In this document: piece by piece, positions 12,407 to 46,659 of the stretch
Layout of the letters: every line of letters begins with the position of its first letter
Numbering within the stretch: position 1 is the stretch's first letter
Source of the DNA: a virus
Strand: one strand, 5' to 3'
DNA: 64,000 nucleotides
Virus record (IMG/VR): IMGVR_UViG_3300027659_000010
The notes under the pieces: model-generated
What the model was told of the DNA's origin: nothing
The model's database searches: none
The model's input: only the letters and a program-made list of their open reading frames with translations
Translations under genes and position numbers: made by a program

Positions 12407-13313
12407 ATTTTGTTAATGGTATATCTGATGCACACGTGCAGAAATTGCGATCACAGGTCACTGGAGTAGTGGGAGCAATAAAGGTACCGGTATAGATGTT
12501 GCCGATGCTGCCTCCGACTCGACAGGTAGCACGATGAACTTCGCCGTCCCAGTTAATCATTAGACTTTCAAGGCCGGCGTTGCAAGACCATCCGTTGAAT
12601 TGATTTAGGTTATTTTTAATAATATCGTTGGCATGGATAATCTTTTCTTCATCGATTCTACAATTAGGCTTTGCAGTAGCATCGTGTTCTAAGATCCATT
12701 CTAGATCTGTTCCGTCATATTTAAGGTCATCAAAGACATTGTGGTCACCCTCGGTCCATCGAATTCTGCGGATAGCATATTTGATACCAATTTCATCAAA
12801 CTTTTTAACAACCAGTTTTACGTGATGAACATATTTGTGATGAGCCATGATATTAACAAAGAAATCTCGTTCTGTGTTGTCGTAGAATTTTAAAATAGTA
12901 TCAAACACTCTAGTCCAATCTTGCTCAAAGTGTAGACTAAAAACAATATGATTGAAAAATGTCTCGTGATCCAAATACCATCGATGACCTCTGGTTCCGT
13001 TGGTAGTTAAGTTGACCCAGAATATATCTTTGCGTTTAAAATACTCGAGAAGGGCTTCAATATCAGGATGAACACAAGGTTCACCTCCTGTTAGACTGAT
13101 GCGCAAAGGCTTACCTAGCCCACATAGTTTATCTACAGCGGCTTCTAGAATATTGATATCTGTATGAGGACTGAAATTGTCGTGTATGACAGATGGGCAA
13201 TAACTACAATCATAGTTACAACGCTTACCAAGATTCCATTCTACTTTGAGCTGATCTTGATGCGGCCAACAACTGGTTATTTTATACATACGGTTTAAAT
13301 TCCGGTACAACAT
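12384..13313 (-). CDS. radical SAM protein
   Basis: CNYDCSYC, TGGEP. Confidence 0.9.
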   Translation of the reverse strand: MLYRNLNRMYKITSCWPHQDQLKVEWNLGKRCNYDCSYCPSVIHDNFSPHTDINILEAAVDKLCGLGKPLRISLTGGEPCVHPDIEALLEYFKRKDIFWVNLTTNGTRGHRWYLDHETFFNHIVFSLHFEQDWTRVFDTILKFYDNTERDFFVNIMAHHKYVHHVKLVVKKFDEIGIKYAIRRIRWTEGDHNVFDDLKYDGTDLEWILEHDATAKPNCRIDEEKIIHANDIIKNNLNQFNGWSCNAGLESLMINWDGEVHRATCRVGGSIGNIYTGTFIAPTTPVTCDRNFCTCASDIPLTKYDPNHRD

Positions 13314-14598
13314 TTAACAAATTCTGACCACGAGTAGAGTCTAAAGCAAAATTAAAATCTAAAAAGTCTTGCCACAAATTATTTTGATCATTAGCTTGTA
13401 GATAATTAATGTTATCTTGTATTTGTTGGTGTGTAACTTTACCTAACAGCGGATTGTTTTTAATTGCATCCCAGTCGTCTATTTGTGATTTAACAGATAA
13501 TAACTTTGTGATTGCTAACACTTTTAAATCGTTAGGCAATACTTGTGCTGACAAGCAGTTAGGATAGCTAACACGATGACTGTAGAATACAATATCCATC
13601 TTGTTGATAAAATAATCAATACACTCTGCGGCTTGTAATATGTTACCTGCTTGCGCTGTAAATGCTCCAACGACTCTACTAACGTTGGGTATCTTTTTTA
13701 TTTCTTTAATATTTTCTTCAACTTGATTAAAGTCACCGTTACCACGTATGTAATTGTAAACATCGTGAATGCCGTCAATGCTGACATTAACGGCAACGCT
13801 TCTAAAATGAGGCCAGTAGTCATATATAGTTCTTCCTTTGCTGATTCCTAAGGTCGTGCCGTTAGTGGCATATTTGATTTCAATGTTCTTGCCATAAGGC
13901 TTGAGCATATCAAGTATTCGATAATGCTGCGGATCCATTAAGGGCTCACCACCAGCAAACTCCACACGTTTAAAATGAGGAATTAACTTTTCAAAACTTG
14001 CCCACCAGTTGTCTGTGTCATCAAACGGACCTATGTATTGGCCGGGTTTCTTGACCAGTCGTTCTACAGTTGATACAAGATAGTTGTTTTCTTTTTTATA
14101 AAAAGGAACAACCTTGTCCCAGTCTTGCCAACTAGTGCTGTCAAGCGGATTGCACATACGACATTTTAAATTACAAAGATTATTAAGTTTGATTTCCATT
14201 GTAGGAATTTCAAATGGCATTGTGAAATCGTGTCGCATATTACTAACAGCATTAGGATATAATGTAATACGTGATTCTGGAATAACTCCTGCAATGTGTC
14301 GCTGTCGTAAACTTTCAACACCCTGATCTTCTAAACTAAAACAAGGAGCACATTCTTTAGGGCGTTCTCCGATCAACACCTGTCTACGTATGCGAGTCAT
14401 TGTTTCACTGTTCCAATGATACTCTAATGGAGCATCTTGTATGAAACCAATGGGGTGGCTGCGACAACAAACTTTAACAGCGCCATCTTCTCTGGTAGCT
14501 AGACCTGTAAAAGGATGCATACAAAATGTTTTACTTTGACTTTTCAACTGCCCACTCCCTTTCTTTGCACCAGAAACAGTTACCACAGGTTGGTACAT
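13282..14598 (-). CDS. radical SAM protein with N-terminal twitch/SPASM-like domain (start uncertain)
   Basis: FCMHPF...VCC...CAPC, CNLKCRMC, AGGEP. Confidence 0.9.
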   Translation of the reverse strand: MYQPVVTVSGAKKGSGQLKSQSKTFCMHPFTGLATREDGAVKVCCRSHPIGFIQDAPLEYHWNSETMTRIRRQVLIGERPKECAPCFSLEDQGVESLRQRHIAGVIPESRITLYPNAVSNMRHDFTMPFEIPTMEIKLNNLCNLKCRMCNPLDSTSWQDWDKVVPFYKKENNYLVSTVERLVKKPGQYIGPFDDTDNWWASFEKLIPHFKRVEFAGGEPLMDPQHYRILDMLKPYGKNIEIKYATNGTTLGISKGRTIYDYWPHFRSVAVNVSIDGIHDVYNYIRGNGDFNQVEENIKEIKKIPNVSRVVGAFTAQAGNILQAAECIDYFINKMDIVFYSHRVSYPNCLSAQVLPNDLKVLAITKLLSVKSQIDDWDAIKNNPLLGKVTHQQIQDNINYLQANDQNNLWQDFLDFNFALDSTRGQNLLNVVPEFKPYV

Positions 14599-19418: not shown

Positions 19419-20376
19419 TGATTACATCTTCTTTATTTCTTATAAAGTGATCAGTTCCACACATATCGCACTCCGGTATTGCACAAAACTTTGAGAAATG
19501 AAATTTTAAAACATCACCTTCTGAACATGTTTCTAAATTTAGAGCTTGATAGTCAACATACTTCTTCCAGTCGGGGTCGTCTAAGCTATTATGGAATTCT
19601 AAAAGTTTCTTTACAGTACCTAATGCAGAACATTTGTATATCTTTTTATCTAGTAAAAAATTACACATCGGACTACTACATCCTTCTTTGTAAGAGATAT
19701 GGGGTAATCCTGTTTTAAAAGGCTTAGGTTTTGTGGCCTGCATATAGTGATTCTTTTTAAAATCAAATTGCGGACGGAAGTGAACAAAAATTTTATCGTT
19801 GCAGTAATAATGGTCATTAGGCTGTTCGCCTAAGAAATATTCTTTATTCTGATCAATCCATTTCCCAAAGTAGGGATCTTTCCTAGGATTATCTAACTGC
19901 ATGAACTTTTTTAAAAACTGATTTGCATCATCTTTAGGTAATCCTAATCTTGTAACTAACTGGTTAACGCCTTCAGTTATTTTTGAAGTCATTTTTGCAT
20001 CAAAGGCTGCAAAATGATTACATACAAACAAACCAGATTCGTGTTTAATTAAAAAGTCTGCGACTTCATCTACGTGTTTAGATAACAGTGTTCCGTTTGT
20101 TGAGAACTGTATCTTTGCAGTAGGATCTATTTTTCGTATGTGCGTTAGTATAATATCGATCTTATCTAAGTATAATAACGGTTCACCTCCAATAACACTA
20201 TACAATTCAATCTCAAACTTTTCTTTGGCTAGTGTAATGCCTTCTAATATTGTTTCAATATCCGGATCTTTATCTGTATCTCTAACGACATTACTTCTAG
20301 TATCGCACTGATTGCATGATAGATTACATTTAGCACCGTAGTACACATCAAGCATTTTAAGGTATGGTTTAGTCAT
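19393..20376 (-). CDS. radical SAM protein
   Basis: CNLSCNQC, IGGEP, STNG. Confidence 0.88.
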   Translation of the reverse strand: MTKPYLKMLDVYYGAKCNLSCNQCDTRSNVVRDTDKDPDIETILEGITLAKEKFEIELYSVIGGEPLLYLDKIDIILTHIRKIDPTAKIQFSTNGTLLSKHVDEVADFLIKHESGLFVCNHFAAFDAKMTSKITEGVNQLVTRLGLPKDDANQFLKKFMQLDNPRKDPYFGKWIDQNKEYFLGEQPNDHYYCNDKIFVHFRPQFDFKKNHYMQATKPKPFKTGLPHISYKEGCSSPMCNFLLDKKIYKCSALGTVKKLLEFHNSLDDPDWKKYVDYQALNLETCSEGDVLKFHFSKFCAIPECDMCGTDHFIRNKEDVINVQISRME

Positions 20377-21532
20377 TTGATGATCTCAGATCTATAACAG
20401 GATAAAATTTTCGTACATGCTGATTGCTGATTTCTTTTTTAGATTTATAATTTTCAATATATTCTGCCAGTTCTAAATTAACGTCTTTTAACGAATGACC
20501 GGTTAATTTATCTACAGAATTATTATAAAAAATAAATTCTTCAAAGTAGTTGTTGTCATCTTTGTTTAAAAATTGCAAAACTTCCGGGTAGTCTTGTACA
20601 GCATGTTTTATGATATTTTTATATTCCTTAGGCAAACATGAAATCCGTAGAAATTCAGGATAAGATAAGAATTTTTTTTCTAATTCGAACTGTGAAAATT
20701 CTTTAGTTATAAACTGATCTAGTTCTTTTAATTTGTTTACATTATACACATTTACAACCGTAGAAATTCCTATAGTAGTACTCTGCTTTGGTCTTGAATC
20801 AATTAAAGAACTATAGAATTTTAAATTTTTTACTATCTCATTAAAATCTGATTTGCCTCTAATGTATTCATTTAAATGTCCAACCCCGTCTATGCTTACA
20901 TTTAAGTCTAAAAATCTACATTTTTTAAATGCTTCGAGTATATAATCTGTTGGCAGCACCGTTCCGTTGGTGTATGTAGAAACAACAACTTTTGATATCT
21001 CATTGGATAGTACCATATCTTTAACAAACTCCTGAGCCCGAGGACTTATCAACGGTTCGCCCCCAAATAATTTAATTTCTTTTAAATGAGTTTTATCGAT
21101 ATCGTTGTGTGTTGTAGATGCTACAAATTTTTTAGGGCTAATTGGTTTCCCTAATATTTTTAATTCGTCATCGTATAATAGATGACTGTTTGCAGATGAA
21201 CACATTCTGCATTTTAAATTGCATAGATTATCAAATTGTATTTGTATAGCATGTATCTCTATATTTTCAACATTACCATATTTCTTAACACTCCGTTGAC
21301 GCATGGATTCTATGCCTGCAACTTCCTCCCTGTAGCATTGATCACAACCGTTTACAATTTCGCCAGCCAACATTTGTTTTCTTACTTTTTCTAATTGACC
21401 GGTATTAAACGATTTCTCAAAAGATTCGTTAATTAGTATCTGATGGGAATAATTCTGACAGCACGGTTGCAACACGTCGCCGTTGTTTATTGTAACTTCT
21501 CTAAAAGGTAATGAACAATAAGTGTCATGCAT
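20369..21532 (-). CDS. radical SAM protein with N-terminal twitch/SPASM-like domain
   Basis: YCSLPF...PCC...CDQC, CNLKCRMC, FGGEP. Confidence 0.9.
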   Translation of the reverse strand: MHDTYCSLPFREVTINNGDVLQPCCQNYSHQILINESFEKSFNTGQLEKVRKQMLAGEIVNGCDQCYREEVAGIESMRQRSVKKYGNVENIEIHAIQIQFDNLCNLKCRMCSSANSHLLYDDELKILGKPISPKKFVASTTHNDIDKTHLKEIKLFGGEPLISPRAQEFVKDMVLSNEISKVVVSTYTNGTVLPTDYILEAFKKCRFLDLNVSIDGVGHLNEYIRGKSDFNEIVKNLKFYSSLIDSRPKQSTTIGISTVVNVYNVNKLKELDQFITKEFSQFELEKKFLSYPEFLRISCLPKEYKNIIKHAVQDYPEVLQFLNKDDNNYFEEFIFYNNSVDKLTGHSLKDVNLELAEYIENYKSKKEISNQHVRKFYPVIDLRSSND

Positions 21533-37902: not shown

Positions 37903-37931
37903 ATTATACAATCACTATCGCTGTGTGTCAA
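37903..37931 (-). promoter_or_regulatory. sigma70-type promoter
   Basis: TTGACA-17-TATAAT. Confidence 0.8.
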
Positions 37932-38010: not shown

Positions 38011-38085
38011 TGGTCCGGCCAGCAGGAATCGAACCCACATTCGCGAGGTAGAAGCTCGCTGTATTATCCATTATACTATGGCCAG
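38011..38085 (-). tRNA. tRNA-Arg(TCT)
   Basis: Cloverleaf, loop CTTCTAC, encoded CCA. Confidence 0.92.
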
Positions 38086-38086
38086 T

Positions 38087-38662
38087 TTAGTCTATTTGAA
38101 TGTCTGCGGCTAATACAAATCTGTATTGAAGGCTCTGTACGATGCCGGGGCGGTGCCACATGTTGCCGGGATAGATCAACCAATTACCGTCTGTGGGGCG
38201 CACAAAATATCTGTCATCAGATTGTGGACCCTCTGGTGCCATCTCTGTACCGCAATAGTCTCGATCTTTAACATCCTCGGGTATGTGTAGATACCAAATA
38301 CCACTGAGTATTTGTGCGGTAGGGGTAGTAGGATGCCAATGATGATGCCAGAGATTATCACGGTTTTCGGCACCCTCGAGATTGGTCATAAAACTCCAGG
38401 CCATCATGTTAGATATTTTGGCTTCACGGCCTAGATACATGAATACACTCATCATAAAACTCACACGGTACTTTAACCATACAGCCTCCGATCTAGCAAA
38501 GATGTTTTCTTTGGTCTGGAACTTAGGTGAATTGGTAAAATAGTTACCGTCGGCAATGATGCCTTTGATAATCTCACAGGCTGCGAGATCATCCTGTTTG
38601 GTTATTAGAGATGAGAAATCGTATTTGCAAGCCTGAGGATTATGATCTATAACTTTCAACAT
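38087..38662 (-). CDS. putative 2OG-Fe(II) oxygenase-like protein
   Basis: WHHH...LSGIWYL...YPGNMWHRP...R. Confidence 0.55.
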   Translation of the reverse strand: MLKVIDHNPQACKYDFSSLITKQDDLAACEIIKGIIADGNYFTNSPKFQTKENIFARSEAVWLKYRVSFMMSVFMYLGREAKISNMMAWSFMTNLEGAENRDNLWHHHWHPTTPTAQILSGIWYLHIPEDVKDRDYCGTEMAPEGPQSDDRYFVRPTDGNWLIYPGNMWHRPGIVQSLQYRFVLAADIQID

Positions 38663-38668
38663 ATTATT

Positions 38669-38742
38669 TGGAGCGGGGTAAGAGAATCGAACTCTCCGCT
38701 TTAGCTTGGAAGGCTAAGGTATTACCACTATACGAACCCCGC
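38669..38742 (-). tRNA. tRNA-Gly(TCC)
   Basis: Cloverleaf, loop CTTCCAA, U73, CCA. Confidence 0.95.
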
Positions 38743-38760
38743 ATAGATTTATTTACTCAT

Positions 38761-38835
38761 TGGCCTCACTGCCAGGAATCGAACCTGGATCTAATTCTTA
38801 GGAGGAACTTGTTCTATCCATTGAACCACAGCGAG
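38761..38835 (-). tRNA. tRNA-Arg(CCT)
   Basis: Cloverleaf, loop CTCCTAA, CCA. Confidence 0.92.
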
Positions 38836-38838
38836 CAA

Positions 38839-39066
38839 TCAGACTTTTTTAAGGTATTCTCGACCTACAGCACCTGACTGCACATCTAACAGTGCGCCAA
38901 CAGGTGCGTTCATCTGAGTCTGTAGTTCAGCTGCTTTGTGTCTGCGACTGAGCTCTCTGGCACGAGCTGATGCTATCAGCACCAAGTCGAATCTATTACC
39001 GCCTACATTTTCCACACATTTTTCTGTGTCAATTTCAGGACCACGACTTAGTGTTTTGTTTTTCAT
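38839..39066 (-). CDS. rpoZ: RNA polymerase omega subunit homolog
   Basis: NRFDLVLIASARAREL motif; 75 aa. Confidence 0.85.
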   Translation of the reverse strand: MKNKTLSRGPEIDTEKCVENVGGNRFDLVLIASARARELSRRHKAAELQTQMNAPVGALLDVQSGAVGREYLKKV

Positions 39067-39080
39067 ACATACCTTATAGT

Positions 39081-39154
39081 TGGTTGCGGGACCCGGAATC
39101 GAACCAGGAACTAGAGCTTATGAGACTCTCGAGATACCGTTTCTCTATCCCGCG
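39081..39154 (-). tRNA. tRNA-Met(CAT), initiator-like
   Basis: C1:A72 mismatch, A11:U24, loop CTCATAA. Confidence 0.9.
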
Positions 39155-39160
39155 ATAGTT

Positions 39161-39736
39161 TTAAATCAAGGCTTCAGCTTGCAATACAGCCACTACATCT
39201 TCTGAAAGAGGTATCTCTGTTTTGATGTTAAGTTCTAACACCTCGTCATTGATCTTTTGTTTCTGTTTTTTCAGACTCAACACTTCTGCTTTGGCCTGTG
39301 CAATCTGTTCTAATCCCAGCACCCCTGTGGTCACTGTGTCACTGTAGCCGTAGATACGACTGCGAGTAGATTCGCTCTTGTCGTTGCGGATCTTGTCCAA
39401 CTTGCCTTTGATCACATCTAGTGCAGTGATCTCTGTGGCCTTGGCCAATTCTTCTAGCTGACCTATACGCTTATCTATAAAAGCTGCTTTGGCCAAAGCA
39501 GTGTCGATACCGCTGGCGCTGTTAGCTGTGCCTACTAGGGCACGGATATTGTACAGAGCCATGGTAAGCTTCTGACGGCGACCGTCATTTTCTACCAAGA
39601 CACTATTGGCTTTGGTGATAACGTCCTCGACTGATTGGAACTCATTGATCTCAACAGTGAGATCAATTTTGATGTTCTTAATTGCTTCTGTGATGCTGTT
39701 CTGCACAGCATTTGCTTTTCTCAGTGTGATATTCAT
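39161..39736 (-). CDS. hypothetical coiled-coil protein
   Basis: 191-aa helical ORF, AAGGA RBS, long structured leader. Confidence 0.75.
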   Translation of the reverse strand: MNITLRKANAVQNSITEAIKNIKIDLTVEINEFQSVEDVITKANSVLVENDGRRQKLTMALYNIRALVGTANSASGIDTALAKAAFIDKRIGQLEELAKATEITALDVIKGKLDKIRNDKSESTRSRIYGYSDTVTTGVLGLEQIAQAKAEVLSLKKQKQKINDEVLELNIKTEIPLSEDVVAVLQAEALI

Positions 39737-39744
39737 TTTTTTCC

Positions 39745-40022
39745 TTTTTCAAACAACAATGACGGATCGACGAAAGGTCAAGTAATAGACCGGACAATGG
39801 ACAATGAAGGGTTGTAATCTTCGTTGACAATGTGCAAATAACAATACACAGAGGTCCATATATTTCCGATTAACAAATGACATTCTATTAGAGATCGGAT
39901 CACATAAACACGTTCCAATTTTCAAGGTTGGATTGTAAGTTCGGATTAGGATTGTAGCCTAAACCTATTTGTCTATCCTCTTCTACCCTTCGCTTCACCG
40001 GTCACGTTATTTCTAACGCAAC
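39745..40022 (-). ncRNA. putative structured leader/ncRNA (about 280 nt)
   Basis: Nested complementary segments, local hairpins, repeated AUUGU; lies between a consensus promoter and the RBS. Confidence 0.6.
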
Positions 40023-40028
40023 AAAACA

Positions 40029-40057
40029 ATTATAACATGGTCTAGGGTGTTTGTCAA
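40029..40057 (-). promoter_or_regulatory. sigma70-type promoter
   Basis: TTGACA-17-TATAAT. Confidence 0.85.
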
Positions 40058-40073
40058 CACTTATTGGTAAAAT

Positions 40074-40147
40074 TGGTGCCCCGTGACAGAATCGAACTGC
40101 CAACCCCTGATTACAAAACAGGTGTTATACCACTTAACTAACAGGGC
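40074..40147 (-). tRNA. tRNA-Thr(TGT)
   Basis: Cloverleaf, loop TTTGTAA, CCA. Confidence 0.93.
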
Positions 40148-40164
40148 CTTATAGTATATATCTC

Positions 40165-40238
40165 TGGTGGAGGATGAGAGAATCGAACTCTCAATCTCGA
40201 CTTGCAAAGCCGATGTTATCCCATTTAACTAATCCCCC
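40165..40238 (-). tRNA. tRNA-Ala(TGC)
   Basis: Cloverleaf, G3:U70, loop TTTGCAA. Confidence 0.95.
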
Positions 40239-40244
40239 GGAATT

Positions 40245-40424
40245 TTATTGTTTGCCTGTGTCGGGCTTGCGACCTTTTTCACGTTTAGGTTGTATGGCTG
40301 CACATAGTTCAGCGTCAATCATAGCACGTTTCCACTGCCCCTTTTGATGTGCATCTTTGAACTTGCCTGTGGCTAAACTGATTTTTAGCAGCGAACTCAT
40401 TCTATAATTTGGACCTGGTTTCAT
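40245..40424 (-). CDS. small basic hypothetical protein (59 aa, not in ORF track)
   Basis: MKPGPNYRMSSLLKISLA...; AAGGA RBS. Confidence 0.6.
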   Translation of the reverse strand: MKPGPNYRMSSLLKISLATGKFKDAHQKGQWKRAMIDAELCAAIQPKREKGRKPDTGKQ

Positions 40425-40446
40425 ATATTTCCTTTTTAAAAAAAAT

Positions 40447-40536
40447 TGGCGGAAGACCGGGGACTCGAACCCCGAAGACGTTTTAAAGCGACCGACGGTT
40501 TAGCAAACCGCTCCAATACCATTATGGGAGTCTTCC
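40447..40536 (-). tRNA. tRNA-Ser(GCT)
   Basis: Long variable arm, loop TTGCTAA, G73. Confidence 0.92.
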
Positions 40537-40543
40537 GTATTAC

Positions 40544-40617
40544 TGGTACCTCGTGACAGAATCGAACTGCCGTATCCCACTTGTAAGGAGGGCATTCTAC
40601 CATTAAATTAACGAGGC
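40544..40617 (-). tRNA. tRNA-Val(TAC)
   Basis: Cloverleaf, loop CTTACAA. Confidence 0.93.
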
Positions 40618-40620
40618 ATA

Positions 40621-40789
40621 ACCATTAAAAAATAACATTACACCCTATGGGATGAGACGGATTTCTGAGTGGAGTTCGATTCTCCTCATCAGCCATTGTC
40701 CACGGTTGTTTCAGAAGAGTAAGATGGCCCTATTCTTCATAAGTCTATGCGTCCATAGACGATACCCGCTAATGCTATTTTTTAATGGT
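40621..40789 (-). ncRNA. putative structured spacer RNA closed by a 20-bp stem
   Basis: 20-bp inverted repeat (one G-U on the minus strand), internal hairpins and a potential pseudoknot. Confidence 0.55.
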
Positions 40790-40866
40790 GCCCCCAGCGA
40801 GACTCGAACTCGCACCCGAAGACTGGCTTCTAAGACCAGCGTGTCTACCAATTCCACCACAGGGGC
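40786..40866 (-). tRNA. tRNA-Leu(TAG)
   Basis: Cloverleaf, loop CTTAGAA, short variable arm. Confidence 0.93.
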
Positions 40867-40880
40867 CTAACACATCAACT

Positions 40881-40909
40881 ATTATACGACAATTTTAGAC
40901 TCTTGTCAA
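40881..40909 (-). promoter_or_regulatory. sigma70-type promoter inside the tRNA array
   Basis: TTGACA-17-TATAAT. Confidence 0.85.
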
Positions 40910-40917
40910 GAGTTTTT

Positions 40918-41001
40918 TGGTGCGAGTGGAGGGACTCGAACCCTCATGCCCTAAGACGGGAGATTTTAAATCTCCTGAGTATGCCATTTCTCCACACTCG
41001 C
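40918..41001 (-). tRNA. tRNA-Leu(TAA)
   Basis: Cloverleaf, loop TTTAAAA, variable arm. Confidence 0.93.
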
Positions 41002-41006
41002 ATTCT

Positions 41007-41082
41007 TGGTGCTGCCTCCCCGGATCGAACAGGGTTCCTCGGATTTTCAATCCGTTGCTATGACCACATCAGCTAAAGCAGC
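41007..41082 (-). tRNA. tRNA-Phe(GAA)
   Basis: Cloverleaf, loop TTGAAAA. Confidence 0.92.
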
Positions 41083-41490
41083 TTAGTCCACAGTAGTGTC
41101 AACTACCTCTACACTAACATCTTCGGAATAGTATCCATTACTGGAACCATACCATCGAACTGTTACACTACCTTTTCGTGTACGAAAACGATAGAATGTC
41201 CATGTGTATGATTCTTCGTATTCATTTAGTGGCCCAGCTTCATAGTTAGAAACTTCTTCAGCTTCTATTAATGGTGCTCCGACTAGGTCTTCAAGATCCC
41301 CACAGATGTCTTCTATGTAAACACTTTCACAACAGTTTTGATGATGTTGGAATCGTACATAGTTTGTCTTTGACAGATACAAAGTTAGTGTTTCGTCATC
41401 TGCTTCTGCCTTGTATAATGTTCGTCCTAGTAGTTCATCGAACTCTCGAACAGAACCTTTTAATGTGTTTAATGTTTTTATTTTTTCCAT
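41083..41490 (-). CDS. hypothetical phage protein
   Basis: HHQNCCESVYIEDI...WTFY...RWYGSSNGYYSE. Confidence 0.75.
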   Translation of the reverse strand: MEKIKTLNTLKGSVREFDELLGRTLYKAEADDETLTLYLSKTNYVRFQHHQNCCESVYIEDICGDLEDLVGAPLIEAEEVSNYEAGPLNEYEESYTWTFYRFRTRKGSVTVRWYGSSNGYYSEDVSVEVVDTTVD

Positions 41491-41500
41491 AATAATTCCT

Positions 41501-41575
41501 TGGGGAGAATGATGGGAATCGAACCCACGCGACGAGAATCACAATCTCGGATGCTACCATTACATCACAGACTCC
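41501..41575 (-). tRNA. tRNA-His(GTG)
   Basis: G-1:C73, loop TTGTGAT; two acceptor-stem mismatches. Confidence 0.88.
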
Positions 41576-41581
41576 ATTGAC

Positions 41582-41656
41582 TGGCACCACCGCCACGAGT
41601 CGAACGTGAACTTAAACTTTCGCAAAGTTTCGTGATATCCCTTTCACTACAGTGGT
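41582..41656 (-). tRNA. tRNA-Arg(GCG)
   Basis: ACCACTG/CGGTGGT acceptor; AAACT-TTGCGAA-AGTTT anticodon arm; CCA. Confidence 0.85.
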
Positions 41657-41815
41657 ATCTTTTTCCAACACATCCTTACGCATAAGAAACATTCTAGAAT
41701 TTTCAGGACGATGAACAACTAGATATTCAACGTCGTCTATTCTTTCTACATTGCGAATGTTCTCGCAGATAACTCGCTCGTTGTTTAGACGATTTCGAAA
41801 TATAATAGGTTTCAT
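41612..41815 (-). CDS. small hypothetical protein (67 aa); 3' end overlaps tRNA-Arg(GCG)
   Basis: AAGGAG RBS before MKPIIFRNRLNNERVIC. Confidence 0.6.
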   Translation of the reverse strand: MKPIIFRNRLNNERVICENIRNVERIDDVEYLVVHRPENSRMFLMRKDVLEKDTTVVKGISRNFAKV

Positions 41816-41832
41816 GCTGATCTCCTTTAATA

Positions 41833-41907
41833 TGGCCGGGCTTAGAGGAATCGAACCTCTACCTGCGGTTTCGAAGACCGTAATGATATCCATTTCACCA
41901 AAGCCCG
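41833..41907 (-). tRNA. tRNA-Arg(TCG)
   Basis: Cloverleaf, loop CTTCGAA. Confidence 0.92.
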
Positions 41908-41914
41908 ATAAAGT

Positions 41915-41988
41915 TGGCACGGGAACTAGGGCTCGAACCTAGAATGACAGAGTCAAAGTCTGTAGTGTTACCATTACACTATTCCCGA
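41915..41988 (-). tRNA. tRNA-Gln(TTG)
   Basis: Cloverleaf, loop CTTTGAC, unpaired 1:72. Confidence 0.92.
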
Positions 41989-41996
41989 ACAGAAAC

Positions 41997-42072
41997 TGGT
42001 CTCCCTACTAGGATTCGAACCTAGACCACACGGCCCCAAACCGCGGATGCAACCAGATAACACTTTAGAGAG
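41997..42072 (-). tRNA. tRNA-Pro(TGG)
   Basis: Cloverleaf, loop TTTGGGG; A at position 8. Confidence 0.9.
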
Positions 42073-42077
42073 ATAAT

Positions 42078-42152
42078 TGGTGGAGGACCAGGGTATCGAA
42101 CCCTTGTAGTCATGAGTCTTGCAAGGACCCACCGCCGTCCTCGGCTTCCCCC
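42078..42152 (-). tRNA. second, non-canonical tRNA-Ala(TGC)
   Basis: GGGGGA/TCCTCC-ACCA with G3:U70; D arm GCCG-AGGA-CGGC; 7-bp anticodon stem. Confidence 0.7.
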
Positions 42153-42158
42153 AAATTT

Positions 42159-42233
42159 TGGTGGTAATGGAAAGAGTCGAACTTTCACTGGGCACCGTAT
42201 GAAGGTGTTGCACTACCGTTATGCTACATTACC
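42159..42233 (-). tRNA. tRNA with CAT anticodon (elongator Met, or Ile2)
   Basis: Cloverleaf, G1:C72, loop TTCATAC. Confidence 0.88.
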
Positions 42234-42291
42234 ATATAGAAACACACTATGCCACGCTCTGAACCTGGACTCTTAGTAATGTGTTTTTATA

Positions 42292-42366
42292 TGGTAGGGG
42301 CACAGGGACTCGAACCCTGATAGACCGGTTAAAAGCCGGCTATTCTAGCCTTTGAATTATACCCCC
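42292..42366 (-). tRNA. tRNA-Lys(TTT)
   Basis: Cloverleaf, loop CTTTTAA. Confidence 0.93.
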
Positions 42367-42369
42367 ATA

Positions 42370-42444
42370 TGGTCCCTCCGGGCAGACTTGAACTGCCAAC
42401 CAGCGGATTAAGAGTCCGTTGCGCTACCATTGCGCCACGAAGGG
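42370..42444 (-). tRNA. tRNA-Lys(CTT)
   Basis: Cloverleaf, loop CTCTTAA. Confidence 0.93.
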
Positions 42445-42504
42445 ATGGATCGTAAATATTTTCTTTTACGTGCCATCCAGGACCATACGGGGTCTAGGAT
42501 GACA

Positions 42505-42525
42505 CTAGAGTTTACCTCGTTTCAT
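42505..42525 (-). CDS. putative regulatory mini-ORF MKRGKL
   Basis: GGAG RBS at 42532-42535; ATG AAA CGA GGT AAA CTC TAG; embedded in alternative helices. Confidence 0.45.
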   Translation of the reverse strand: MKRGKL

Positions 42526-42539
42526 GTCATTCTCCGTTG

Positions 42540-43997
42540 TTAATATTTCTGAGTACTTAACTTTTTATCTTTGTAAGATTGTATTTTTGGCAGTGCAACC
42601 GCAAGGTCACCCTGGCTGAATTTAGCAGTTTCATTTAGTCTGTTGATTAGACCACCGTCAATCCCTATCGATGCAAGAGCCCAACAGTTAAATGTAAAAC
42701 CATTTTCTTTCTTAAACAGCTCACGCCACATTTTTTCTTGTAGATCCGTTGCTTGATTTATATTCATAAACTTGTTTTGCCAATGTAATACTGTAGAAGC
42801 AACCTTAGCATCCTGGTCCTCGTTAGATCGTATGATCGCATCATCCATCACGGTATAACCATATTTTTTATAGTCTATACTAATTTTAGATTGTGTGTCA
42901 AACTCTCCCGCTGGTATTTCTAAAACAAATGGAAGAAATGATTGTCCTCGCCAGTTTTCTTTTAACCAGTCAATTGTTCTTTCTATTTGTTCTACAGTAT
43001 CCCCTGGTAGACCTATAATAAAACTTATATTTCCCCGGTACAATCCCCGGTTCATAAAATAGTTTTTACTATCTATCAATCCTGCTTTTATCCTGTCAGG
43101 GTCCATGCCCTTACCGATAACTTTAACTGACTCTTTGTTAAAACTTTCTATACCATAATGGTGACCAAGAAATCCTAATCTAGCTAATTCTTCTTTTTCT
43201 TCTTTTCTAGCTATCATTAAGTCTGCCCTAATAAACCCACTAAACCAAGGACGAAATGGCAATAGTTGTGTTACATCAGCAAATTTGGTTATTTTTTCTG
43301 TTCGATCATTAAATGTTTCGTCGGATACATAGTAGTTAGTAACTCCAAACCTATCATAGGCATCCATAACTTGTATGTAGTAATCTAATGCATCTCTGCT
43401 GTAATCTCCTTTTACACCTAGTACAGGAAAGTTACAAAATGCACATCTAAACTTACAGCCTCGAGCAAACTCAATTCCTAACCACTCGTCGGGACTAATG
43501 TAGTCCCGGTCTTGATACTTTACCATTAAACTTTTCATTGGAAACGAAGGATACATTTCATTTCCGTTGATTAACTTTTTATTGAAAATAGAAAACTTTG
43601 GAAGTTCTCCGTTGCTAAAAAGCCATTTTAGCAAAACTAACAAAGCGTTTTCGCCGAAACCTTGAATGTAATAATCTATACACTTTGATTTGAACTGTGG
43701 AGCAACTCCTGAGCCTGATATTAAAACAACCCCAGGATACTCAATCTTCAACCATTCTGTAAAGTTTTCTAATTCTACACTCCACACCGAAAACATGTGA
43801 CCAAATCCTATAAATTTTGTGTCTTTATCGATTCTTGATCTAGACAGTTCTTTTAACTCATCTAAAGTCCAATATAAAGTATAATCGATAACCTCAGAGT
43901 CCCAATCATGTTCTCTAAGATAGTGTGCTATTCTGTATACACCTAAATTCCTTCCTAACTGGTTAGTTGAAACATTGAATAATAAACATTTATGCAT
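42540..43997 (-). CDS. B12-binding-domain radical SAM protein (class B methyltransferase-like)
   Basis: EFARGCKFRCAFC, SDETFN, GIES, FIIGLPGDT; N-terminal cobalamin-binding-like domain. Confidence 0.85.
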   Translation of the reverse strand: MHKCLLFNVSTNQLGRNLGVYRIAHYLREHDWDSEVIDYTLYWTLDELKELSRSRIDKDTKFIGFGHMFSVWSVELENFTEWLKIEYPGVVLISGSGVAPQFKSKCIDYYIQGFGENALLVLLKWLFSNGELPKFSIFNKKLINGNEMYPSFPMKSLMVKYQDRDYISPDEWLGIEFARGCKFRCAFCNFPVLGVKGDYSRDALDYYIQVMDAYDRFGVTNYYVSDETFNDRTEKITKFADVTQLLPFRPWFSGFIRADLMIARKEEKEELARLGFLGHHYGIESFNKESVKVIGKGMDPDRIKAGLIDSKNYFMNRGLYRGNISFIIGLPGDTVEQIERTIDWLKENWRGQSFLPFVLEIPAGEFDTQSKISIDYKKYGYTVMDDAIIRSNEDQDAKVASTVLHWQNKFMNINQATDLQEKMWRELFKKENGFTFNCWALASIGIDGGLINRLNETAKFSQGDLAVALPKIQSYKDKKLSTQKY

Positions 43998-44036
43998 TGT
44001 TTATTTAAATGATTAGGCTACTGGAGTTTAATAAAA

Positions 44037-44093
44037 CAGGATAGCATCTTTTTTCATTAAAAGTGAAATTGGATTTTTGCTGTTGCTATACTA
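44037..44093 (-). ncRNA. putative mini-RNA presenting a tRNA-Lys(UUU)-like anticodon stem-loop
   Basis: Outer stem TAGTATAGCA/TGCTATCCTG enclosing TTTCA-CTTTTAA-TGAAA. Confidence 0.5.
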
Positions 44094-44097
44094 AACT

Positions 44098-44171
44098 TGG
44101 TTCCCAGAACAAGAATCGAACTTGTAATGACCGGTTATCAGCCGATTGTTATACCATTTAACTATCCGGGA
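44098..44171 (-). tRNA. tRNA-Ile(GAT)
   Basis: Cloverleaf, loop CTGATAA. Confidence 0.93.
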
Positions 44172-44175
44172 AAAT

Positions 44176-44265
44176 TGGTGGAAGCGGTGAGATTCGAACT
44201 CACGGACCCTTTCGAGCCGTCTGTTTTCAAGACAGGTGCAATAAACCGGACTCTGCCACACTTCC
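44176..44265 (-). tRNA. tRNA-Ser(TGA)
   Basis: Long variable arm, loop CTTGAAA. Confidence 0.93.
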
Positions 44266-44273
44266 ATAAACTT

Positions 44274-44354
44274 TGGTACCCCTGCCCGGACTCGAACCGG
44301 GATACATAACACTCCTTTTGAGAGAGCTGCCTTTACCAATTTGGCCACAGGGGC
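44274..44354 (-). tRNA. tRNA-Leu(CAA)
   Basis: Cloverleaf, loop CTCAAAA. Confidence 0.92.
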
Positions 44355-44360
44355 ATTACG

Positions 44361-44452
44361 TGGTACCAGCGGAGGGAATCGAACCCTCTCAAGAACGCTA
44401 ATCTGGCGCTAAAAGGTTTATAAAACCTCTCTGACTACCAAGTCTCGCTGGC
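44361..44452 (-). tRNA. non-canonical tRNA with TAT anticodon (Ile by anticodon)
   Basis: GCCAGCG/CGCTGGT-ACCA; D arm GACT-TGGT-AGTC; GAGAGGT-TTTATAA-ACCTTTT; long variable arm. Confidence 0.75.
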
Positions 44453-44457
44453 ATTAT

Positions 44458-44535
44458 TGGAAGTGCGGGTGAGATTTGAACTCACGGTTTTAGAGTTTTG
44501 CAGACTCTTGCATTGGACCTCTCTGCCACCGCACT
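44458..44535 (-). tRNA. tRNA-Cys(GCA)
   Basis: Cloverleaf, U73, loop CTGCAAA. Confidence 0.93.
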
Positions 44536-44541
44536 ATAGAT

Positions 44542-44615
44542 TGGCTACCCACCAGGGACTCGAACCCCGACGAACAGTTTTGGAGACTGTCATGCTGCCA
44601 TTACATCAGTGAGTA
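44542..44615 (-). tRNA. tRNA-Trp(CCA)
   Basis: Cloverleaf, loop CTCCAAA, G73. Confidence 0.93.
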
Positions 44616-44620
44616 ATTCT

Positions 44621-44694
44621 TGGAGCGGGTAGCGAGAATCGAACTCGCGAATAAACCTTGGCAAGGTTTCAGGTTACCATTACATCATACCCGC
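44621..44694 (-). tRNA. tRNA-Gly(GCC)
   Basis: Cloverleaf, loop TTGCCAA, U73. Confidence 0.93.
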
Positions 44695-44700
44695 ATTATA

Positions 44701-44775
44701 TGGTACACGGTACGAGAATCGAACTCGTCTTTCCGCCTTGAAAGGGCAGCGTCCTAACCGATAGACGAACCGTGC
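44701..44775 (-). tRNA. tRNA-Glu(TTC)
   Basis: Cloverleaf, loop CTTTCAA. Confidence 0.93.
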
Positions 44776-44782
44776 ATAATAT

Positions 44783-44858
44783 TGGCTCCCCAGCGTGGGA
44801 TCGAACCACGGACACCTTGATTAACAGTCAAGTGCAACTACCGCTGTGCTACTGGGGA
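44783..44858 (-). tRNA. tRNA-Asn(GTT)
   Basis: Cloverleaf, loop CTGTTAA. Confidence 0.93.
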
Positions 44859-44864
44859 ATAAAC

Positions 44865-44940
44865 TGGCGCCTCGTAGGGGAGTCGAACCCCTGTGTTCCG
44901 CTAGACAGGCGGGCATAATAGACCGTTATATGAACGAGGC
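44865..44940 (-). tRNA. tRNA-Asp(GTC)
   Basis: Cloverleaf, loop CTGTCTA, G73. Confidence 0.92.
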
Positions 44941-44946
44941 AAAACT

Positions 44947-45034
44947 TGGTGGGGACTGAAGGAATCGAACCTAACCGCCAGCCACTCTGCAATTAAGGCA
45001 AGAGATTTACAGTCTCCCGCAGAGAACAGCCCCC
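44947..45034 (-). tRNA. D-armless tRNA-Tyr(GTA)-like RNA
   Basis: GGGGGCT/AGTCCCC-ACCA; GGAGA-CTGTAAA-TCTCT; TTCGATT loop; no D hairpin. Confidence 0.7.
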
Positions 45035-45260
45035 AAATCGAAAACACTCTCCATCGACTATGTCAACCTGTCCTTTCGATACATGAAAGTAGGAGAGTGT
45101 GTATTAAAGTACTCTAAACTACTTAGGCTGCCTGTTCGTAAAGAATACTTTAATACGCTACCATTTTTTTATCCACATAAGGATAAGCCATCCGGTAGGC
45201 CGCCCATTCGCCCATTTTAAGTGCGGGCTAGGATCTCGTTTCCTATCACACTCTTCGAAC

Positions 45261-45431
45261 TTAATGATCAGTGGACTCGAGAAGATTACTCTTCTTCAAA
45301 GCTTCTCTGAGCTTGTAGGCTCGGTCAAACTTATCTTGAATAAGTTTGCGTGTCTGTTCATCGGTTAAGGTATAAGCAGATACGTAAGCCTGTTCAACTT
45401 TTTTATTGTGTTCTATCTGTTCTCTATGCAT
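45261..45431 (-). CDS. small hypothetical protein (56 aa), first gene after the attenuator
   Basis: AAGGAG RBS; MHREQIEHNKKVEQAYVSAYTLTDEQ... Confidence 0.55.
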   Translation of the reverse strand: MHREQIEHNKKVEQAYVSAYTLTDEQTRKLIQDKFDRAYKLREALKKSNLLESTDH

Positions 45432-45444
45432 TTTTCTCCTTTAT

Positions 45445-45479
45445 AAAAACAAAAACCCCAGGGTGTTTATTCCTGGGGT
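45445..45479 (-). terminator. intrinsic terminator of the tRNA-array leader (attenuator)
   Basis: ACCCCAGG-9 nt loop-CCTGGGGT followed by TTTTGTTTTT. Confidence 0.85.
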
Positions 45480-45505
45480 CCTTTGAAGTAGCTGTGTATT
45501 TTCTG

Positions 45506-45649
45506 TTACACTAACATCTCCACGGACCCCGGCTGTAGCTCTGGTGTGCGATCATTAGATATACTATCAATCGCGAGCCAATATGAGGGCACAAAGCCTC
45601 CCATCTGGGCTAGGGATTTACAAGATCTATGTAATGATGCTGTTTTCAT
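45506..45649 (-). CDS. putative attenuator leader peptide (47 aa, contains all 20 amino acids)
   Basis: MKTASLHRSCKSLAQMGGFVPSYWLAIDSISNDRTPELQPGSVEMLV; codons 40-42 carry the antiterminator strand GGGGTCC. Confidence 0.7.
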   Translation of the reverse strand: MKTASLHRSCKSLAQMGGFVPSYWLAIDSISNDRTPELQPGSVEMLV

Positions 45650-45699
45650 TGTCTTTTCATTTCCTTGAAAGTCACACACTGTTTCTAGTGCATGTGTTA

Positions 45700-45728
45700 A
45701 TTATACATGTATTTAGTCTCTGTGTCAA
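45700..45728 (-). promoter_or_regulatory. sigma70-type promoter (proximal) of the tRNA array
   Basis: TTGACA-17-TATAAT, with TAAATA in the spacer. Confidence 0.88.
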
Positions 45729-45783
45729 CCTCTATTTGCACTTCTGGCAAAAAAGTTTTGACTCTTTGCTAAACATTACTGCT

Positions 45784-45812
45784 AGTATACGGTCTTTTTA
45801 TTTATGTGTCAA
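45784..45812 (-). promoter_or_regulatory. sigma70-type promoter (distal) of the tRNA array
   Basis: TTGACA-17-TATACT, with TAAATA in the spacer. Confidence 0.8.
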
Positions 45813-45841
45813 CCTAGACCCGGCCTGTTTATGTGGCTTTT

Positions 45842-46087
45842 TTACAACAGATCATCCTGTGCGATCAGTAGATGCTTGCCGATTTCAAAGAGTCCGACTC
45901 CGCCTGGCAGGTCCAAGGCACTGACATGTATCTGCGCCACTCCATCTCGGTCGAGAGTACAGGCTACCATTTCTCGGATCTCGCCCTGTTCAATCAATTC
46001 TTTTACGTGGTTGATCACTTCGAGCAGTGATTGCTTGCGCTCTTCATCTTCTTTGCCCTTGGGATCAAATGTGTAAACGTTGTTCAT
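45842..46087 (-). CDS. hypothetical protein
   Basis: 81 aa; ATGA overlap with clpP. Confidence 0.7.
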   Translation of the reverse strand: MNNVYTFDPKGKEDEERKQSLLEVINHVKELIEQGEIREMVACTLDRDGVAQIHVSALDLPGGVGLFEIGKHLLIAQDDLL

Positions 46088-46659
46088 AGCATTAAATGAT
46101 CCGCTACGCCGATTTCCACAGTTTCTTCTGCGGTAAGATAGACATCTGAGGCTGGCAACAATTTTTTCTTGATCACTGATGGTGCCAGTCCAGTGGCTGT
46201 TTTCAAAATAGATACCATGCGTTCATTGCAGCTGTCATTTTCTCGCATGGTGGCTTTGAGATCGTGATATTTATTGTCCATGCTTTCTGAAAATTGGTGG
46301 CACATGAAACTGGTGTTCTTGGCAGCGTATCTTTCACCGTGGGTGCCTGATGCAAAGATCAGAAATGCTGCGCTCATCACAGCACCTATGCCCACACAGC
46401 GTAGTTTATGGGGACTGGCTTGCATGACATCTATCAAGGCAAATGCCTGATAAAGATCTCCTCCGGCGGAGTTGATGTACAGAGTCAGAGTTTTTTCTTT
46501 GGCTACATCGAGATTTTCATAGATCAACCAGCGCACACATTCGCCCACAGAATCCTCGTTGATCTCACCGTTGAGGAAAAAGGTACTGGATTCCAGTAGT
46601 TTGAGATCAATCTGATCCTCAGCATTGAAATATTCTGATCGTTTCACTTTCTGCTCCAT
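46084..46659 (-). CDS. clpP: ClpP-family protease subunit
   Basis: LYINSAGG, GAVMSAA (catalytic Ser), FMCHQ (His), DVYLTAEE...GVAD. Confidence 0.85.
   Translation of the reverse strand: MEQKVKRSEYFNAEDQIDLKLLESSTFFLNGEINEDSVGECVRWLIYENLDVAKEKTLTLYINSAGGDLYQAFALIDVMQASPHKLRCVGIGAVMSAAFLIFASGTHGERYAAKNTSFMCHQFSESMDNKYHDLKATMRENDSCNERMVSILKTATGLAPSVIKKKLLPASDVYLTAEETVEIGVADHLML

Follow-up and report, generated by a model that had tools for sequence, protein, structure and literature searches.

Why large phages carry near-complete sets of tRNA genes, and how these sets are regulated, is an open question. Current ideas on the role of phage tRNAs include codon-usage matching, compensation for the decay of host tRNAs, and evasion of anticodon nucleases. 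The locus analyzed here raises the question of regulation: in a 64,000-nucleotide stretch of viral DNA (IMG/VR virus record IMGVR_UViG_3300027659_000010; hereafter, the window), a tRNA array is preceded by a short open reading frame (ORF) that encodes all 20 amino acids and ends within a pair of overlapping hairpins. What might such a leader do? An initial annotation, made from the sequence alone, took it for an attenuator that senses tRNA depletion in general: stalling of a ribosome at any of the first 37 or so codons would free an antiterminator and allow transcription of the tRNA genes. We followed up this proposal by a computational analysis of the locus and its relatives, and overall this interpretation is supported.

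Organization of the leader locus

The leader is encoded on the minus strand, and its anatomy (Table 1) was reproduced as initially annotated. The promoter at 45728 to 45700 is a perfect match to TTGACA-17-TATAAT. The ORF runs from an ATG at 45649 to a TAA at 45508 to 45506 and gives the same 47-codon peptide, in which the set of 20 amino acids is complete at codon 37; up to that point 31 distinct codons are used, and the whole ORF uses 33. The segments GGGGTCC (45530 to 45524) and GGACCCC (45481 to 45475) are indeed complementary, and the 5' arm of an intrinsic terminator (45479 to 45445) overlaps the second of them. We refer to the antiterminator hairpin as H1 and to the terminator as T.

Table 1. 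Features of the leader element and its downstream genes in the window
Feature	Coordinates	Strand	Remarks
Upstream tandem promoter-like site, TTGACA-17-TATACT	45784..45812	-	11/12 matches
Leader promoter, TTGACA-17-TATAAT, spacer with CTAAATA	45700..45728	-	Perfect consensus
5'-terminal hairpin of the leader transcript	45672..45696	-	Centroid fold
AAGGA, Shine-Dalgarno-like	45662..45666	-	12 nt before ATG; 12-13 nt in relatives
Leader ORF, 47 codons + TAA, all 20 amino acids	45506..45649	-	Homologous ORFs open in 85/85 distinct family members
AATGATCG, Asn-Asp-Arg codons	45549..45556	-	Invariant columns of the family alignment (A1)
H1, antiterminator hairpin: 7-bp base GGGGUCC/GGACCCC, middle helix, apical helix	45475..45530	-	Minimum-energy folds
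T, intrinsic terminator: ACCCCAGG, 9-nt loop, CCTGGGGT / CCUGGGGU + U-run (T-run)	45445..45479	-	Occurs once in the window
Conserved small ORF, 56 aa	45261..45431	-	Strong AGGAG site; starts 19 nt after the U-run
tRNA array, same strand	38011..45035	-	ARAGORN count, 29 genes, with unusual ones in addition; a 485-aa ORF interrupts the array, as do internal promoters

The -35 and -10 hexamers of the leader promoter are kept across the family alignment, and relatives also show an upstream -10-like sequence. The promoter conforms to the sigma-70 consensus, and the whole element spans approximately 290 nt. In the 5'-terminal hairpin, the arms vary among relatives while their complementarity is kept (CACT/AGTG, GCGTT/AGCGT, GACAGC/GCTGTC); this hairpin is missing from one near-leaderless subfamily, in which the 5' UTR is almost absent. 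The distance between AAGGA and the ATG exceeds the usual optimum, and the intervening stretch is A-rich. A four-codon upstream ORF was checked for conservation among the relatives, and none was found.

A family of elements in uncultivated phages

The ClpP-like protease gene located just upstream of the element (46084 to 46659) served as a search seed and led to 70 IMG/VR loci; the leader region was detectable by blastn, at approximately 70% identity, in roughly 30 of them. Two pattern scans of IMG/VR contigs contributed further loci. A locus was taken when the core motif, the 3' strand of H1, and the terminator were present, and its ORF was read in the conserved frame regardless of composition; four upstream-extended starts were trimmed before peptides were counted. 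The resulting set comprises 85 distinct leader peptides of 35 to 52 residues. The frame is open in every one of the 85, and the stop codon lies 21 to 34 nt before GGACCC.

Contigs that carry the element are up to 364 kb long, and some of them are complete and have terminal repeats; thus, the carriers are uncultivated jumbo phages. Each of two complete genomes that were searched contained one significant match to the element. No match was obtained when the element was compared by blastn with GenBank phages. The nearest cultured relative, identified by a 696-aa protein, is Methylophilales phage Melnitz (50% identity), and its genome has no match to the RNA model of the element; consequently, no cultured carrier is known. 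A covariance-model scan of positions 44900 to 46100 against Rfam, judged by E-value, returned chance-level matches only, with no T-box and no other family among them. When the leader peptide was used in a protein search, two near-identical metagenomic ORFs were the only matches, and PHROGs and Pfam had no match for the leader, the downstream small ORF, or an 81-aa ORF upstream.

Amino acid repertoire of the leader peptide

How unusual is a short peptide with all 20 amino acids? Among stretches taken from the phage's own long ORFs, all 20 amino acids occur in 0.40% of those 37 residues long and in 3.0% of those 47 residues long; at least 31 distinct codons are found in 0.77% of 37-codon stretches, and both properties are combined in 0.07%. 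The leader is also the only all-20 ORF among the 101 small ORFs (35 to 52 aa) in the window. Its diversity is therefore above the background of its own phage, a comparison that the initial annotation had proposed as a check. Taken within the window alone, such a composition is unusual, not extreme, and could be luck: the case against chance comes from the relatives.

All 20 amino acids are present in 82 of the 85 distinct leader peptides, and the other three miss Phe, Leu, or Cys and Leu. A looser capture added three further leaders that lack only Cys. We compared the 85 peptides with a tree-aware null, in which sites evolved independently along the family tree with per-column residue frequencies and rates: it yielded a mean of 15.3 complete tips (standard deviation, 6.3), with a maximum of 47 in 300 runs. 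The first set of 46 sequences had given the same picture, with 46 complete leaders where approximately 10 were expected, whether the root was random or was the window's own complete peptide; shuffling the columns of this set left 9.8 complete. Thus, the prediction that related phages would keep 20 of 20 amino acids despite heavy divergence was borne out, as was covariation of the antiterminator (see below).

The excess of complete leaders is due to compensation, whereby rare residues relocate. When a leader contains a single Cys, this residue may occupy any of 17 alignment columns; sole His residues are spread over 9 columns, sole Tyr over 8, and sole Phe over 7. For example, where the Tyr of SYW is lost, a Tyr appears in SYDR or near the N terminus. 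Between 6 and 11 amino acids occur only once in any given leader. These comparisons show selection for completeness, under which the presence of each amino acid, not its position, is maintained.

The sequence of the peptide appears to matter much less than its content. Nucleotide diversity at codon positions 1, 2, and 3 is 0.43, 0.38, and 0.42, respectively, and such equal values indicate that the peptide sequence is barely constrained. At the same time, no relative has a frameshift or a premature stop, all indels are multiples of three, and the ATG is conserved. The fixed points of the leader are the start codon, one Trp, (Asn/Tyr)-Asp-Arg, and, mostly, Thr-Pro-Glu. The segment AATGATCG is nucleotide-invariant in the main family, with zero diversity at its codon positions, and is lost in distant relatives. 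Neither this invariant segment nor the conserved Trp is explained by a pure sensor model. A TnaC-like spacing of Trp, Asp, and Pro was considered and rejected, as it is not conserved across relatives.

There is a hint that isoacceptors are sampled as well. Both Leu codon boxes are used in 78 of the 85 leaders (58 under the null) and both Arg boxes in 73 (53 under the null), with 35.8 distinct codons per leader versus 33.1 expected; this null ignores relatedness, and some codons are forced by the arms of H1. Enrichment in rare codons was rejected as weak: codon adaptation is 0.67 versus a background of 0.73, a difference of about one standard deviation.

Location relative to the hairpins is a further property of the repertoire. 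The set of 20 is complete upstream of the 5' arm of H1 in 43 of 46 peptides; in the other three, Val is confined to the tail, which overlaps H1. Glu is usually the last to appear, approximately three codons before H1.

Mutually exclusive hairpins at the end of the leader

Between the leader ORF and the downstream genes, T forms an 8-bp GC-rich stem followed by a U-run; a consensus terminator scan missed it only because the loop limit of that scan was 8 nt. The last seven or so codons of the leader contain the 5' half of H1, and the 5' arm of T has ACCCC in common with the 3' arm of H1. In the minimum-energy fold of the region (z = -3.0 to -3.6), the long GGGGUCC...GGACCCC hairpin is present and precludes the terminator: formation of H1 costs T five of its eight pairs. 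In each of the 46 relatives that were folded, H1 forms; it starts immediately past the invariant motif and runs to GGACCC[C/U]. Predicted stabilities in this set are -18 to -30 kcal/mol for H1 and -12 to -17 kcal/mol for T (-14.3 kcal/mol for T in the window). The sequence of the H1 apical helix differs between lineages, and in 46 of 46 the stop codon lies in this apical part.

A covariance-model alignment of 92 elements was used to assess covariation in H1. Its positions are paired in 89.8% of cells, as opposed to 78% in shuffles and at most 51% when the partners were slid, and compensatory changes are seen at 11 of 17 pairs. T is nearly invariant, with 99.7% of cells paired across 91 sequences. 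A column that is common to both hairpins is informative: 56 sequences have C there, and 33 have U. Where it is U, the H1 partner has changed from G to A in 30 sequences, and T keeps a U-G (29) or a U-A (4) pair. Because this column stays paired in both structures, both pairings are maintained, as expected of a switch.

We then asked whether the position of a ribosome would select between the two structures, a fold check that had been suggested in the initial annotation. Unmasked, H1 is the predicted structure in 70 of the 85 sequences. A ribosome footprint placed at the stop codon causes T to replace H1 in 62 of 85, as proposed, whereas with a footprint at codon 20 H1 stays in 70 of 85 folds. 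The predicted fold geometry thus fits selection of the structure by ribosome position. On the other hand, when a footprint of -15 to +14 is placed on a ribosome stalled at the last amino acid to be reached, T is predicted in 82 of 85; a ribosome stalled at the late Glu codon would itself block H1, so that sensing of this codon is doubtful. Folds of the individual sequences revealed no conserved 1:2 partner for the 5' arm of H1.

Genes downstream of the terminator

The tRNA genes were initially annotated as the cargo of the switch. The array does lie downstream, but it is not the sole cargo: a small ORF of approximately 53 aa comes first. In most relatives this ORF starts 16 to 19 nt after the U-run, and its Shine-Dalgarno site is outside both hairpins. 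Of 82 relatives, 69 have an ORF of at least 25 aa after the terminator, and most of these ORFs have the motif TLTxEQxxKLIxDKFERA. The Atlas gave no lead on the downstream small ORF.

In all relatives for which more than 600 nt of sequence is available downstream, a same-strand tRNA array begins 250 to 1,015 nt after the terminator. The initial count for the window was 32 tRNA genes; ARAGORN reports 29, and the gap consists of unusual tRNAs that this program misses. The internal promoters previously placed at 40909 and 40057 were found again, and there is another at 37931. Part of the array would therefore escape control, and the element would most directly govern the proximal part.

Distant relatives and the match between leader and array

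The arrangement extends beyond the main family. In distant relatives, whose ClpP is 41 to 44% identical, the promoter, the short ORF, and the H1/T arrangement are all kept ahead of a tRNA array, whereas the arm sequences of both hairpins differ and the NDRTPE motif is absent. The distant leaders are 36 to 46 aa long and contain 20, 19, 18, 18, and 18 kinds of amino acids.

Some of the missing kinds form a pattern. In three of these relatives (G002, G003, and L256), Asp, Glu, and Tyr do not occur in the part of the leader that precedes H1, and precisely these three are missing from the same-strand tRNAs downstream (20 to 30 genes of 17 kinds). In G003, the 17 kinds of amino acids before H1 are the 17 kinds of tRNAs downstream. 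In G002 and G004, tRNAs for Asp, Glu, and Tyr are located just upstream of the element. A second leader ahead of the upstream Ser-Glu-Tyr-Asp-Met tRNA cluster of G002 was looked for, and none was seen. There are exceptions: the G004 leader has Glu and Tyr although the matching tRNAs are upstream, and the L077 leader is without Cys, yet a Cys tRNA is downstream. In G006 and G007, leader content and array do not match cleanly. Strict matching was rejected as a rule in the main family, where the exceptions do not fit it cleanly either. The few independent events are nevertheless suggestive of a leader repertoire that may track the regulated tRNA set.

Proposed mechanism and alternative explanations

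We consider it likely that the element is a ribosome-mediated attenuator of transcription, with a leader that is kept complete and through which the capacity to decode every amino acid is monitored. We infer that the leader is translated, that ribosomes stall on it, and that termination is conditional. Transcription would start at the consensus promoter, and a ribosome would translate the 47-codon leader. A ribosome that keeps pace to the end would hold the 5' strand of H1 open, freeing GGACCCC for T, and transcription would stop. If, instead, the ribosome stalled at an earlier codon because the cognate charged tRNA was scarce, cleaved, or absent, H1 would form first and T would not; an untranslated leader would likewise form H1 and be read through. 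Since H1 is transcribed first and is the stronger hairpin, read-through would be the default. H1 may also, as a speculation, make the polymerase pause until the ribosome has caught up. Read-through would reach the conserved small ORF and the tRNA array, and new phage tRNAs that relieve the stall would close the loop. Because every amino acid occurs at least once before H1, a shortage of any one could open the array. In classical attenuators, single codons are weak sensors of mild starvation. They would be adequate for outright tRNA loss, and the phage design therefore fits an anticodon-nuclease defense or infection-induced tRNA decay better than nutritional control.

A more ambitious version of this mechanism is possible, and we put it forward tentatively: a closed-loop tRNA homeostat, in which the repertoire of the leader is tuned to, and co-evolves with, the array that it controls. 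Loss of any host tRNA, for example through an anticodon-nuclease defense or infection-induced tRNA decay, would induce exactly the phage tRNAs able to replace it, and these, once made, would shut the array down. Under such a scheme, the leader would have lost its Asp, Glu, and Tyr codons when the corresponding tRNAs left the regulated unit.

Several other explanations deserve to be weighed against attenuation. The leader could be a translated decoding sensor that does not act through conditional intrinsic termination: T would be constitutive, stalling would alter RNA decay, processing, or coupling, and H1 would serve RNA stability or processing or would regulate how the small ORF is translated. 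A conserved small ORF 16 to 19 nt after the U-run is what one might expect in this case, and the internal promoters could express the tRNAs independently. However, the Shine-Dalgarno site of the small ORF is outside both hairpins, the strand common to H1 and T is maintained for both pairings, and H1 takes five of the eight pairs of T and is more stable; we therefore regard a constitutive terminator as unlikely. It is improbable, too, that the element is a general sensor of translation rate or of transcription-translation coupling, to which codon identity would be irrelevant and which would respond to host shut-off, ribosome-targeting antibiotics, or ribosome availability. Such a sensor does not predict a selected, complete repertoire or the compensatory relocation of single residues, nor does it predict that leaders without the matching tRNAs downstream would have lost their Asp, Glu, and Tyr codons, even though the architecture predicts read-through whenever the leader is not promptly translated and the systems closest in logic (whiB7, toiL, bmrB, and vmlR) respond to antibiotics.

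The remaining explanations dispense with sensing. If the ORF were an ordinary gene for a small phage protein, its 20-amino-acid content would be a by-product of some unknown structural or functional need. The strong conservation of Trp, (Asn/Tyr)-Asp-Arg, and Thr-Pro-Glu is in line with a protein gene, as is the fact that the ORF has its own consensus promoter and terminator. Yet third codon positions show no excess of diversity, which means that most residues are not under purifying selection of the protein type; rare residues change columns but are always present; and no protein family, PHROG, or Pfam match was found. The overlap of H1 and T, the placement of the stop codon, and the strict linkage to tRNA arrays would all be left unaccounted for, and this explanation is quite improbable. 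That the locus encodes a non-coding RNA of approximately 250 nt, from promoter to terminator, with an incidental ORF, is highly improbable: the frame is open in 85 of 85 highly diverged sequences with all indels in multiples of three, the stop codon has a fixed structural position, amino acid completeness has no meaning for a non-coding RNA, and there is no Rfam match. What such an RNA would account for is the folding of the whole leader, which is better than that of shuffled sequence (z = -3.6), and the nucleotide invariance of AATGATCG.

If attenuation by a complete leader is borne out, the element would provide the first demonstrated regulatory tie between the tRNA array of a phage and the decoding state of the host, as well as the first leader peptide selected for a complete repertoire rather than for a sequence or a codon run. 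It would offer a natural reporter of translation stress that covers all amino acids, as well as a search image for use elsewhere: an improbably complete short ORF followed by overlapping hairpins.

Comparison with known systems

Enterobacterial attenuators, such as those of trp, his, leu, thr, ilv, and pheA, consist of a leader ORF followed by mutually exclusive antiterminator and terminator hairpins, and upstream stalling leads to read-through. The phage element resembles the trp/his/leu type in having a short leader ORF and, after it, exclusive hairpins that are predicted to be chosen by ribosome position. However, leaders of this type have codon runs that specify a single amino acid or a small number of them, whereas the phage leader has no runs and includes all 20 amino acids, each at one or a few positions. 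They also have an additional 1:2 pause or anti-antiterminator hairpin, whereas the phage element is without a conserved 1:2 partner, so that an untranslated phage leader is predicted to read through. Finally, the trp/his/leu type controls biosynthetic enzymes, the cargo of the phage element is a tRNA array, and there is no sequence homology. By architecture, then, the phage element is a ribosome-mediated attenuator, one that lacks the codon runs and the 1:2 hairpin of the classical type and has no homology to any leader described so far.

T-box elements recognize a single, specific uncharged tRNA by direct binding, independently of translation. The likeness lies in the sensing of tRNA charging, as proposed for the phage element, and in the choice between a terminator and an antiterminator; the phage element differs in having no T-box match in Rfam. 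A literature search, for which most subscription journals were beyond reach, found no amino-acid-complete leader and no control of phage tRNA genes by attenuation.

Other leaders report ribosome stalling more broadly. The E. coli toiL-topAI system works through occlusion of a ribosome-binding site and Rho-dependent termination and responds to antibiotics (PMC12121999). In toiL, as in the leaders of B. subtilis bmrB-bmrCD and vmlR, a short ORF likewise reports stalls at various positions and alters downstream RNA structure, but none of the three has been reported to be amino acid complete or linked to tRNA genes.

The statement in the initial annotation that no attenuator with this logic had been described has to be qualified, as the upstream ORF (uORF) of mycobacterial whiB7 is a partial conceptual precedent. 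Translation of this uORF leads to a rho-independent terminator and stalling to an antiterminator; the amino acids that are sensed depend on the composition of the uORF, a single Trp or His codon is enough, and a uORF without Trp or His codons no longer responds to depletion of that amino acid (10.1101/2023.06.02.543512). The M. smegmatis uORF contains 19 of the 20 amino acids, and that of M. tuberculosis is without several; whiB7 uORFs are rich in Ala (25 to 40%), and their repertoire varies between species (10.1101/2023.06.02.543512). Thus, completeness is not conserved in whiB7, whereas in the phage leader completeness itself is under selection. The cargo differs as well: a transcription factor for antibiotic resistance in a cellular genome on the one hand, and tRNAs in a viral genome on the other. 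There is no sequence or genomic homology between the two, and the likeness is one of logic only; in that logic, whiB7 is the closest known system to the phage element.

Start of the leader transcript

The leader ATG follows the -10 hexamer by only about 10 nt in one subfamily and among distant relatives (loci L074, L076, L086, L094, L095, L101 and others, plus L232 and L233). The leaders of this L074 subfamily, as well as those of L232 and L233, have neither a 5' hairpin nor a Shine-Dalgarno site; thus, their mRNA is predicted to be nearly leaderless. Most of these short-5'-end leaders still hold all 20 amino acids, with 18 in L233. A four-codon upstream ORF overlapping the leader ATG in the window, MKRQ, was also considered. 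Its ATG is absent from every aligned relative, and judging from this alignment the ORF is therefore probably incidental.

Conserved and variable leader codons

The string AATGATCG is invariant at the nucleotide level throughout the main family, synonymous positions included, and is missing in the distant relatives. The tRNAs immediately downstream are those for Tyr, Asp, Asn, and Glu. The sole main-family leader without both Cys and Leu is that of genome G006 (locus L260), where the Cys and Leu tRNA genes are adjacent, 5860-5965 nt downstream of the element. This pair opens a distal cluster past a 1.2-kb gap, and the cluster may be a separate transcription unit.

Genes downstream of the terminator

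A conserved small ORF starts directly after the terminator. It is present in most relatives, where it is about 50-60 aa long, with the shared motif TLTxEQxxKLIxDKFERA; searches of families, PHROG, Pfam, and the Atlas gave no lead for it. Upon read-through, it would be the first product expressed.

Features of the window and of a related phage locus
Feature	Location	Strand	Remarks
AATGATCG	window 45549-45556	minus	Asn/Tyr-Asp-Arg codons; GATC inside
MKRQ upstream ORF	window 45646-45660	minus	four codons
Conserved small ORF	window 45261-45431	minus	56 aa; strong AGGAG site
tRNA-clan match	window 44950-45035	minus	Rfam; 26 bits
485-aa ORF	window 42540-43997	minus	mid tRNA array; carries CKFRCAFC
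ORFs matching radical-SAM PHROG	window 7895-9292, 13282-14598, 20369-21532
tmRNA gene	L077 5905-6292		tag ANDEQFVLAA; ARAGORN

The CKFRCAFC of the 485-aa ORF is a CX3CX2C, radical-SAM-type motif. No PHROG matched this ORF; a radical-SAM PHROG was matched by three others elsewhere in the window. The product of the 485-aa ORF might be an enzyme that modifies tRNA or RNA. ARAGORN found no tRNA-Tyr within the window, and the weak, sub-threshold tRNA-clan match is consistent with an unusual Tyr tRNA at that position.

In several relatives, ARAGORN called a tmRNA gene, marked permuted, within or just past the tRNA array. In genomes G001, G002, and G004, the called gene is located 9-13 kb downstream of the element. 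Alongside the array, these phages thus also encode a ribosome-rescue RNA.
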